DNA of 47,708 bases, from positions 1 to 47,708 of the forward strand of contig JAISAV010000078.1 of the NCBI GenBank assembly GCA_031266545.1, in the 5' to 3' direction. Positions 40,870 to 41,147 of this stretch are shown piece by piece (the first letter of the stretch is position 1; each line of letters opens with the position of its first letter). The DNA is from Odoribacteraceae bacterium (GTDB taxonomy: Bacteria; Bacteroidota; Bacteroidia; Bacteroidales; Marinifilaceae). The notes below the pieces were generated by a model. The model was not told where the DNA came from and made no database searches. It worked only from the letters and a program-made list of their open reading frames with translations. The translations under genes were made by a program, and so were the position numbers.

Positions 40870-40950
40870 ATGAACAAATTAAACCTACACGTGATTCTAT
40901 TAGTGACCGGTGGTATTATTACCGCGGGAGCGAGGAAGGCGTGCCGGTAG
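40870..40950 (+). CDS. Leader peptide 1, Ile/Leu/Val-rich (MNKLNLHVILLVTGGIITAGARKACR)
   Basis: 26-codon ORF read directly. 9 of 26 residues are I/L/V. Followed 20 nt later by a canonical terminator. Contains the antiterminator box GAGGAAGG (40932-40939). Confidence 0.7.
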   Translation: MNKLNLHVILLVTGGIITAGARKACR

Positions 40951-40970
40951 ACATGAGTTTTAGTTTTAGG

Positions 40971-41002
40971 GCCTTTCTCGCGCAATCGAGAAAGGCTTTT
41001 TT
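40971..41002 (+). terminator. Attenuator terminator 1
   Basis: GCCTTTCTCG-CGCAAT-CGAGAAAGGC followed by TTTTTT. Confidence 0.85.
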
Positions 41003-41014
41003 AATTTAAAAGAG

Positions 41015-41077
41015 ATGACAAGACAAGAGAACATACAGATTATTATCGTGATTCTACTCGTGGTGCTACAGACATGA
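41015..41077 (+). CDS. Leader peptide 2, Ile/Leu/Val-rich ([20 protein letters not shown])
   Basis: 20-codon ORF read directly. 11 of 20 residues are I/L/V, ten of them consecutive ([10 protein letters not shown]). A GAGGAAGG box lies 4 nt after the stop (41081-41088). Confidence 0.75.
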
Positions 41078-41115
41078 CGAGAGGAAGGACGCGTACCATA
41101 GTGAAAACTTATCAA

Positions 41116-41147
41116 GCCTTTCTCGAGCGACCGGGAAAGGCTTTTTT
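41116..41147 (+). terminator. Attenuator terminator 2
   Basis: GCCTTTCTCG-AGCGAC-CGGGAAAGGC (one G.U) followed by TTTTTT. Ends 9 nt before ilvD. Confidence 0.85.

Follow-up and report, generated by a model that had tools for sequence, protein, structure and literature searches.

How would a bacterium control its branched-chain amino acid operon when a pair of short open reading frames (ORFs) rich in isoleucine (Ile, I), leucine (Leu, L) and valine (Val, V), each followed by a hairpin and a run of six Ts, stand one behind the other ahead of it? The question is raised by contig JAISAV010000078.1 (assembly GCA_031266545.1) of an Odoribacteraceae bacterium, of which we analyzed a stretch of 47,708 nucleotides, hereafter the window. 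Sequence reading and ORF listing place two such tandem units directly before ilvD-ilvB-ilvC-ilvA. The original prediction, an earlier reading of this DNA, took them for two complete leader-peptide attenuators in series, and that proposal is supported by matches to a covariance model (R1, described below), by covariation, by the geometry of the antiterminator boxes, by rare codons and by conservation of the tandem. We consider it likely, at a probability of roughly 0.78, that the leader carries two complete ribosome-mediated Ile/Leu/Val transcription attenuators in series on one transcript.

In the mechanism that we propose, one promoter near 40817-40847 would give rise to a leader RNA of ~315 nt holding both attenuators. 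In each, a ribosome would translate the short ORF, in which most of the codons for Ile, Leu and Val are rare ones. Where charged Ile-, Leu- and Val-tRNA is plentiful, the ribosome would reach the stop codon and cover a purine box (GCGAGGAAGGC or GAGGAAGG); with the box covered, the GCCUUUCUC...GRGAAAGGC-U6 hairpin would form and RNA polymerase would terminate. A ribosome stalled on the I/L/V codons would melt a protector helix and free the box, which would then pair with the terminator's 5' arm while the 3' arm is still to be transcribed, letting polymerase read on. Because the transcript must pass both decisions to reach ilvDBCA, the read-through probabilities would multiply, and two units would hold the basal level lower than a single unit does and make the response to the supply of branched-chain amino acids steeper and larger. 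That the ORFs are translated, that transcription stops at the T-tracts, that the leader responds to amino acids and that a second unit brings a quantitative gain are inferences.

Each unit carries the parts of an attenuator

Both units contain a short I/L/V ORF, an intrinsic terminator, an alternative antiterminator helix and a stop codon placed to mask the box, parts expected of a ribosome-dependent attenuator. Together they make up a tandem cis-element, in which two complete sensor and terminator units lie on one strand ahead of one operon with neither a promoter nor a gene between them. The two mini-ORF and terminator units were found where they had been proposed, by sequence reading, in the ORF list and by a terminator scan, with stems of 13 and 12 pairs (Table 1).

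The regulatory codons of leader 1 are L4, L6, V8, I9, L10, L11 and V12 (also I16 and I17). In the minimum free energy (MFE) and centroid folds without a ribosome, region 1 of this unit pairs with the antiterminator box, forming the protector helix. The antiterminator strand, GCGAGGAAGGC, begins -19 nt relative to the leader stop codon and pairs over 11 bp (one G.U) with GCCTTTCTCGC at 40971-40981, at a predicted -21.7 kcal/mol compared with -12.3 +/- 2.4 kcal/mol for shuffled sequence. This antiterminator forms when the nascent RNA is folded with a ribosome mask over 40870-40920 and is lost when the mask lies at the stop codon. In the family of leaders described below the stop codon usually falls inside the box, as G-UGA-GAAAGG, whereas unit 1 of the window reads GCGAGGAAGG there; ORF1 therefore crosses the box and ends 9 nt later. 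The C-terminal half of leader 1 (40906-40947), GG[VI]IT[AT]GA[RG]KA, is kept in five genomes with some third-position changes (GGT/GGG/GGA, GCG/GCT/GCA), and selection on the peptide is inseparable here from selection on the RNA because the middle hairpin and the antiterminator box use the same bases.

ORF2 begins 12 nt past the T-tract of terminator 1, which leaves no space for a promoter between the units. The box of unit 2 begins +5 nt from the stop codon and pairs over 8 bp with CCTTTCTC at 41117-41124; this antiterminator forms in the nascent fold with a ribosome mask over 41015-41064 and does not form with the mask at the stop. The earlier proposal that a GAGGAAGG box pairs with the terminator 5' arm, with one G.U, to form an antiterminator is supported, at 11 bp (one G.U) in unit 1 and 8 bp in unit 2 and with covariation above controls.

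The two units have several sequences in common. The GAGGAAGG box stands at both 40932 and 41081, and the 10-mer ATGAACAAAT recurs at 40870 and 41149, both as first noticed in the original prediction; CGTGATTCTA (40890, 41047) and GAAAGGCTTTTTTAAT (40990, 41135) are likewise found in both. It is via CGTGATTCTA that the box of each unit folds back on the region of the regulatory codons when no ribosome is present. A pattern search for CCTTTCTC-N3-14-GRGRRAGG returned only these two hairpins in 47.7 kb, against 0.01 expected, and both units fold more stably than their shuffles (z = -3.35 for unit 1 and -3.04 for unit 2).

Three further observations concern this region. The 5' arm CCUUUCU (40971-40979, 41116-41124), conserved throughout the family, is what we take to be the last bases of bacterial 16S rRNA (...CCUCCUUUCU-3'); in that case the antiterminator boxes (40932, 41081) would resemble Shine-Dalgarno sequences, as would the 3' arm (GAGAAAGG), which could be chance or a three-way pairing constraint. 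A match to a sigma-70-type promoter at 41015-41043 was disregarded, as ORF2 encloses it and promoters of this phylum are of another type. Lastly, a third ORF of 28 codons (41074-41160, + strand) overlaps the ORF2 stop in an ATGA, crosses terminator 2 and ends 9 nt before ilvD. Its frame is open in two close relatives (L162, L165) and closes early in two others (L161, L166), and because of this early closure we take it to be probably chance.

Terminator and antiterminator helices co-vary

We counted base pairs on a MAFFT alignment of 69 units, chosen by a heuristic that looks for a hairpin and an ORF. The terminator was paired in 94.2% of cells, with compensatory changes in 13/13 pairs, and its covariation score of 0.451 exceeded those of shuffles (0.243) and of slid registers (<=0.20); RNAalifold independently predicted the same helix. 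For the antiterminator, 84.4% of cells were paired, double changes were seen in 40 cells versus 13 in shuffles, and the score was 0.299 as against 0.187 for shuffles and <=0.136 for slid registers. Both the terminator and the antiterminator thus co-vary across the 69 units, in support of the original prediction.

For 30 units we paired the terminator 5' arm against the sequence running from the ORF start to the terminator, with shuffles for comparison. The best partner was nearly always a purine box, typically G-UGA-GAAAGG with the stop codon inside, and its pairing greatly exceeded that of shuffles in stability. In 30/30 units the start of the box fell between -21 and +6 nt relative to the stop codon of the leader. 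Variant stems go with matching variant boxes by lineage: CCATTCTCAG with CTGAGAGTGG, CCCTTCCC with GGAAGGGC and GCTTTCCGGG with CCCGGGAA.

Folding of the two alternative structures in the window gave the switch that had been proposed, in both units. When the regulatory codons were masked in nascent RNA folded up to the terminator loop, the box paired with the 5' arm; a mask over the stop codon, sized to the established footprint of the ribosome, prevented this pairing. The protector helix is predicted in both units and is kept in the consensus fold of five leaders, which contains protector and terminator in both units; few compensatory changes were seen in the protector.

A family of leaders in front of ilvD in Bacteroidota

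We collected 160 loci containing relatives of IlvD, drawn from both species genomes and metagenomes, and scanned the upstream regions for an I/L/V-rich short ORF followed by a hairpin and a T run. About half of these loci have such a unit, all of them in Bacteroidota (Bacteroides, Phocaeicola, Alistipes, Paludibacter, Prolixibacteraceae, Marinifilaceae and others), and the same scan found none upstream of the fetched IlvD relatives from other phyla. A later protein search brought closer IlvD relatives, for a set of 166 loci and 1.2 Mb in all. The stem of the family is strikingly conserved (GCCTTTCTC...GAGAAAGGC), and both hairpins of the window read GCCTTTCTC...GRGAAAGGC-T6.

We made the covariance model R1 from 59 units, among which neither the window nor any of its four closest relatives was represented. 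We found that R1 matches the window over its full length at 41072-41150 (50.9 bits, E=4e-7) and at 40923-41005 (46.1 bits, E=3e-6), with no further match on the + strand of the window. It matches 94 of the 166 loci, and every + strand match in the 1.2 Mb lies directly upstream of ilvD, in agreement with a pattern search. Since R1 matches both units of the window, and matches only upstream of ilvD, both belong to one family specific to the ilvD leaders of Bacteroidota. Window units and family are alike in the GCCUUUCUC/GAGAAAGGC hairpin, the purine box at the stop codon, the I/L/V ORF and the place upstream of ilvD; they differ in number, the family having mostly one unit per locus and the window and its clade two. 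A single R1 match at E <= 0.01 is found in 84 of the 94 matched loci, a count that includes L165 and L166, where the second unit was seen by eye. Alistipes proper (IlvD 70-72% identical) has one unit, and so does Bacteroides thetaiotaomicron. Two loci of Bacteroidia with 73% IlvD identity, L163 and L164, have no R1 match and, on reading, no leader ORF or terminator in the 220 nt upstream of ilvD.

None of the Rfam leader families (Leu_leader, His_leader, Thr_leader, Trp_leader, Bacteroid-trp and others) matches the window at its gathering score, and no Rfam amino-acid leader reaches E <= 10 in 40650-41300. Matches to PyrR and L10_leader in the region are at chance level and are made through the terminator sequence, and we rejected them. 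The units therefore form a well-supported candidate RNA family, as judged from sequence comparison, that is absent from Rfam.

The tandem is old and has probably arisen more than once

The scans of species genomes and metagenomes reached IlvD identities of <=72%, and the four closest relatives (L161, L162, L165 and L166; IlvD 79-82% identical) came only from the protein search. Alignment of the regions upstream of ilvD showed that all four carry both units, and the whole leader aligns across the five genomes at 72% column identity. Leader 1 has 26 codons in 5/5 genomes (relatives' examples MRHFILHVILLTVGGVITAGARKACG, MDNFYLHVILFVAGGVITTGAGKACR), and orthologues of leader 2 are found in the four relatives and in L086 (for example MRIVNFINVILIVILPVVLRT). 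Unit 1 is nearest to the relatives' unit 1 and unit 2 to the relatives' unit 2, and because the two groups stay separate across the clade, the duplication predates it. Orthologous units are 0.54-0.83 identical and units within a genome 0.41-0.61, which rules out a recent tandem duplication. The near-identical arms that had suggested a duplication do reflect one, then, though one that is ancient and orthologous across the clade. The window's own pair is the most alike (0.61), and this likeness may reflect some homogenisation. The presence of orthologous tandems in relatives this diverged argues that the arrangement has probably been kept by selection.

Further tandems were found in four other groups of loci (Table 1), and their distribution suggests that tandems originated separately at least three to four times. 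Across all tandems ORF2 starts 14-23 nt past the end of the terminator-1 stem. At L125 (2216-2482) the stems of the two units differ (GCCATTCTC and GCCTTTCTC), and each stem has a box to match it (GAGAATGG and GAGGAAGG); judged by sequence, this looks like mutual insulation of the units, contrary to the window with its identical cores.

The leaders use rare codons

With 25 long ORFs of the window (14,294 codons) as the reference, the I/L/V codons of the leaders include CTA and TTA, at 3% and 5% of Leu codons, and ATT and ATA, at 12% and 8% of Ile codons. Their mean relative frequency is 0.16 in leader 1 and 0.28 in leader 2, compared with 0.42 in genes, and G+C at third codon positions is 0.59 and 0.48, respectively, compared with 0.845. 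Measured against random sets resampled from the genes of the window, the leader I/L/V codons come out as significantly rare (p = 0.00015 for leader 1, p = 0.0025 for leader 2), which bears out the suggestion that the A/T-ending regulatory codons are rare. This rarity may be partly forced by the RNA pairing of GUGAUUCUA.

Weighing the serial-attenuator reading

Several points weigh against two working attenuators in series. The heuristic by which the 69 units were chosen favours hairpins, though not antiterminators, and kinship of sequences can beat shuffle controls without any structure. At equilibrium both terminators of the window outcompete their antiterminators, and because the terminators win thermodynamically the model depends on kinetics, as it does in all attenuators. 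The antiterminator of unit 2 (-12.2 to -12.6 kcal/mol, compared with -9.2 +/- 2.3 for shuffled sequence) is by itself barely above chance; the case for it rests on homology, because the homologous boxes of the relatives reach -19 to -22. Each hairpin of the window is followed by a perfect T6; the T-tracts of the relatives, by contrast, are poor, above all after terminator 2, which reads GGCTC-TCGTCATAAAT in L161 and GGCTC-TTGTAATATT in L166; U-poor tails past this terminator also include CTTCATTATTA and TTGTAATATTA (sites at L161 2443-2453, L165 357-367, L166 1856-1866 and L086 ~470-480). The efficiency of termination in the relatives is uncertain for this reason, and termination there would be either weaker or factor-dependent. 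Finally, the benefit of two units is not obvious, because most Bacteroidota ilvD leaders have one (single match in 84/94).

One refinement, compatible with serial attenuators, would couple the two units: the 3' arm of terminator 1, freed when antiterminator 1 forms, would block terminator 2 at long range. This arm (CGAGAAAGGCUU, 40987-40998) is complementary at 12/12 positions to the 5' arm of terminator 2 (AAGCCUUUCUCG, 41114-41125), and the predicted duplex of -21.6 kcal/mol is stronger than both unit 2's own antiterminator (-12.6) and the stem of terminator 2 itself (-19.5). With antiterminator 1 enforced, the MFE structure of the nascent leader pairs the two arms, and in the four closest relatives the cross duplex still reaches -15 to -17. 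The complementarity, however, follows automatically from the GCCUUUCUC core that the family has in common, and in the relatives the own antiterminator of unit 2 (-19 to -22) is stronger than the cross pairing. Where the cores of a tandem differ, as in L125, L007, L040 and L061, the cross duplex is weak (-8 to -14), which is more like insulation. Such pairing would also have to close a loop of ~115 nt in the brief interval until the 3' arm of terminator 2 is transcribed, and the whole proposal draws on thermodynamic predictions. On balance we think coupling unlikely. If it is true, read-through granted by regulation at unit 1 would extend to unit 2, and transcripts that had leaked past a formed terminator 1 would still be subject to unit 2, a proofreading or feed-forward design that would lower basal expression without loss of the induced level.

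Alternatively, only one unit might work, the other being a decaying duplicate without regulation. That most family members have one unit would fit this, as would the weak antiterminator of unit 2 in the window and the poor U-tract after terminator 2 in the relatives. Decay is, however, hard to reconcile with five genomes, their IlvD only 79-82% identical to the window's, in which both units keep an ORF with its I/L/V run, protector, box and hairpin, and in which leader 1 has kept its length in codons exactly. Both window terminators are perfect, with T6, and tandems arose or persist in several other lineages. We therefore hold the loss of one unit to be quite unlikely.

The composition of the leaders bears on a division of labour, in which unit 1 would sense Leu and unit 2 Ile and Val (or some other split) under AND logic; a separation of Leu-rich from Ile/Val-rich sensing had been raised in the original prediction. 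Codon counts in the window lean this way, with 4 Leu, 3 Ile and 2 Val codons in leader 1 against 5 Ile, 3 Leu and 3 Val codons in leader 2. Both leaders nonetheless mix all three amino acids, without a consistent division, in 5/5 related genomes (unit 1 LHVILLTVGGVIT, LHVILFVAGGVIT; unit 2 NVILIVILPVVL, AILLVILLV), and the leaders of L086, L125, L040 and L061 are likewise mixed, so that separate sensing is not borne out and such a split seems very unlikely. It is hardly credible that the units are not regulators at all and instead encode two small hydrophobic peptides (or a small RNA), each gene with its own terminator, upstream of ilvD by chance: both peptides are hydrophobic and the C-terminal motif of leader 1 is kept in five genomes, but across the family only the I/L/V run is conserved and not the peptide sequences, the conserved parts are co-varying RNA elements found only in front of ilvD, the leader codons are the rare ones, and there is no room for a separate promoter of ilvD or of unit 2. 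Two complete attenuators in series remain the reading that we prefer.

Promoter, leader layout and downstream operon

The promoter-like element upstream of the leader (Table 1) fits TTTG / TAnnTTTG, which we take to be the Bacteroidetes -33/-7 consensus. Its form TTTG-N19-TAT(A/C)TTCG is kept in the four closest relatives in the leader alignment, and this predicted promoter implies a transcript start at ~40853-40856. Upstream of the leader, on the opposite strand, lies a gene for a Bacteroidetes-type extracytoplasmic function (ECF) sigma factor. The products of the operon, by their NCBIfam matches, are enzymes of the Ile/Val pathway. An ilvD start at 41157 had been assumed; the 605-aa called product and the alignment of four relatives at the ATG instead make 41169 the most likely start, and with this start T-tract 2 ends 21 nt before ilvD rather than 9 nt.

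Table 1. Positions of leader elements and operon genes in the window, and tandem leaders found at other loci.
Feature	Position	Strand	Remarks
Promoter-like element	40817-40847	+	TTTG 40817-40820, 19-nt spacer, TATCTTCG 40840-40847
Leader ORF 1	40870-40950	+	26 codons, MNKLNLHVILLVTGGIITAGARKACR; 9 I/L/V codons (4 Leu, 3 Ile, 2 Val)
Region 1 of unit 1, CACGTGATTCTA	40888-40899	+	Overlaps codons H7-L10; MFE and centroid folds
Antiterminator strand of unit 1, GCGAGGAAGGC	40929-40939	+	Within ORF1, 9 nt ahead of the stop codon
Terminator 1	40968-41002	+	13-bp stem, 6-nt loop, T6; GCCTTTCTCG 40971-40980, CGCAAT, CGAGAAAGGC 40987-40996, T6 40997-41002; terminator scan, fold
Leader ORF 2	41015-41077	+	20 codons; 11 I/L/V codons (5 Ile, 3 Leu, 3 Val)
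Region 1 of unit 2, CGTGATTCTACTCGTG	41047-41062	+	Overlaps codons V12-V16; pairs with 41078-41093 without ribosome (folds)
Antiterminator strand of unit 2, GAGGAAGG	41081-41088	+	4 nt past the ORF2 stop codon
Terminator 2	41114-41147	+	12-bp stem (41114-41143), 6-nt loop, T6 41142-41147; terminator scan, fold
Regulated operon ilvDBCA (regulation predicted)	41169-47101	+	NCBIfam equivalog matches
ilvD, dihydroxy-acid dehydratase	41169-42986	+	NCBIfam
ilvB, acetolactate synthase large subunit	43005-44708	+	NCBIfam
ilvC, ketol-acid reductoisomerase	44781-45845	+	NCBIfam
ilvA, threonine ammonia-lyase	45842-47101	+	NCBIfam
Other tandem	L086-L089		Human-gut lineage, 68% IlvD identity
Other tandem	L125		Its unit 1 orthologous to the single unit of L042, L118 and L140
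Other tandem	L007		Prolixibacteraceae
Other tandem	L040 (Ancylomarina), L061 (Labilibaculum sp. K2S)		Marinifilaceae; Labilibaculum sp. K2S is an isolate

The ilv genes have a G+C content of 69-72%, in line with an earlier hand count of about 70%, and the leader one of 41.5%. Viewed in 2-kb bins, the ilv operon (41169-47101) stands at 69-73% G+C and the remainder of the window at 52-66%, an outlier by at least 10 points; expression-linked codon bias or foreign origin could be the cause. The gap between ilvB and ilvC (44709-44780) measures 72 nt and so holds no ilvN, the gene for the small subunit of acetolactate synthase, whereas L166 has a 74-aa ORF at the same place. Approximately 100 nt downstream of ilvA, at 47199-47243 on the - strand, is a match to the Rfam Acido-Lenti-1 RNA (RF01687; 41.1 bits against a gathering score of 37, E=5e-6), with a weak second match at 47568-47599 (+); the family was described from Acidobacteria and Lentisphaerae, and the host here is Bacteroidales-like.

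Relation to known systems

The leaders of E. coli ilvGMEDA (ilvL), ilvBN (ivbL) and leu (leuL) are well-described attenuators. These enterobacterial leaders and that of the window are alike in their short I/L/V ORF, their rare sensing codons and their protector, antiterminator and terminator pairings; an intrinsic terminator likewise stands just ahead of a branched-chain operon, and the mechanism that we propose is the same. They show no similarity in sequence or by model, and there is one unit in the enterobacterial leaders and two in series in the window. Bacteroidales largely do without Shine-Dalgarno sequences, and each leader ORF of the window, whose host is Bacteroidales-like, is preceded by an A/U-rich stretch, unlike those of enterobacteria. 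The Bacteroid-trp motif presumably lies upstream of trp biosynthesis genes and represents the same general type of leader in the same phylum; it concerns another amino acid, has another sequence and has no match in the window.

Serial arrangements have been described elsewhere. The 'tandem attenuators' of Salmonella mgtCBR consist of a long leader with two short ORFs, whose translation chooses between stem-loops that control transcription into the coding region (PMC3641672). The mgtCBR ORFs are unrelated and are proposed to respond to different signals, whereas the units of the window are paralogous, have their own intrinsic terminators and would both read I/L/V. Among other serial devices, tandem riboswitches and T-boxes, such as paired glycine riboswitches, place two sensor units in one leader (PMC3766115). 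They resemble the window in having two sensor and terminator units and an expected tighter off state and steeper response; the sensing there is done by a ligand- or tRNA-binding RNA and in the window would be done by a ribosome translating the leader ORF.

The amino-acid attenuators of Rfam are restricted to His, Leu, Thr and Trp (PMC3766115), and PMC2864571 lists the Bacteroid-trp motif (RF01692) for Bacteroidetes. Before it added Firmicutes, a 2010 survey regarded leader peptides as known only from Proteobacteria and Actinobacteria (PMC2965389), and a transcriptome paper on B. thetaiotaomicron offers only a remark on short ORFs in long 5' untranslated regions (UTRs) (PMC7366714). Our literature search found no description of a Bacteroidota ilvD leader or of tandem ilv attenuators. 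The 2004 abstract of Vitreschak et al. is said to mention attenuators in Bacteroidetes/Chlorobi, and a single ilvD leader unit may have been predicted earlier. The original prediction had called the arrangement one not known as described; this stands for the exact layout and not for serial cis-regulators in general, among which 'tandem attenuators' were already known (PMC3641672). The leader is thus not a new principle, as serial riboswitches, serial T-boxes and mgtCBR already show the logic; what is new is the serial duplication of an attenuator.

Leader-peptide attenuation is a textbook mechanism, yet nearly all study of it has dealt with Proteobacteria, Actinobacteria and a few Firmicutes (PMC2965389). 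The ilvD leaders of Bacteroidota form a large co-varying family of 94 loci, gut Bacteroides, Phocaeicola and Alistipes among them, and offer natural cases, from at least three to four lineages, in which a whole attenuator would have been doubled and then retained. Relatives with one unit and relatives with two make a ready set in which to measure the effect of a second ribosome-sensing gate on leak, dynamic range and steepness. For gut Bacteroidales, the family would provide a testable handle on the control of branched-chain amino acid synthesis.

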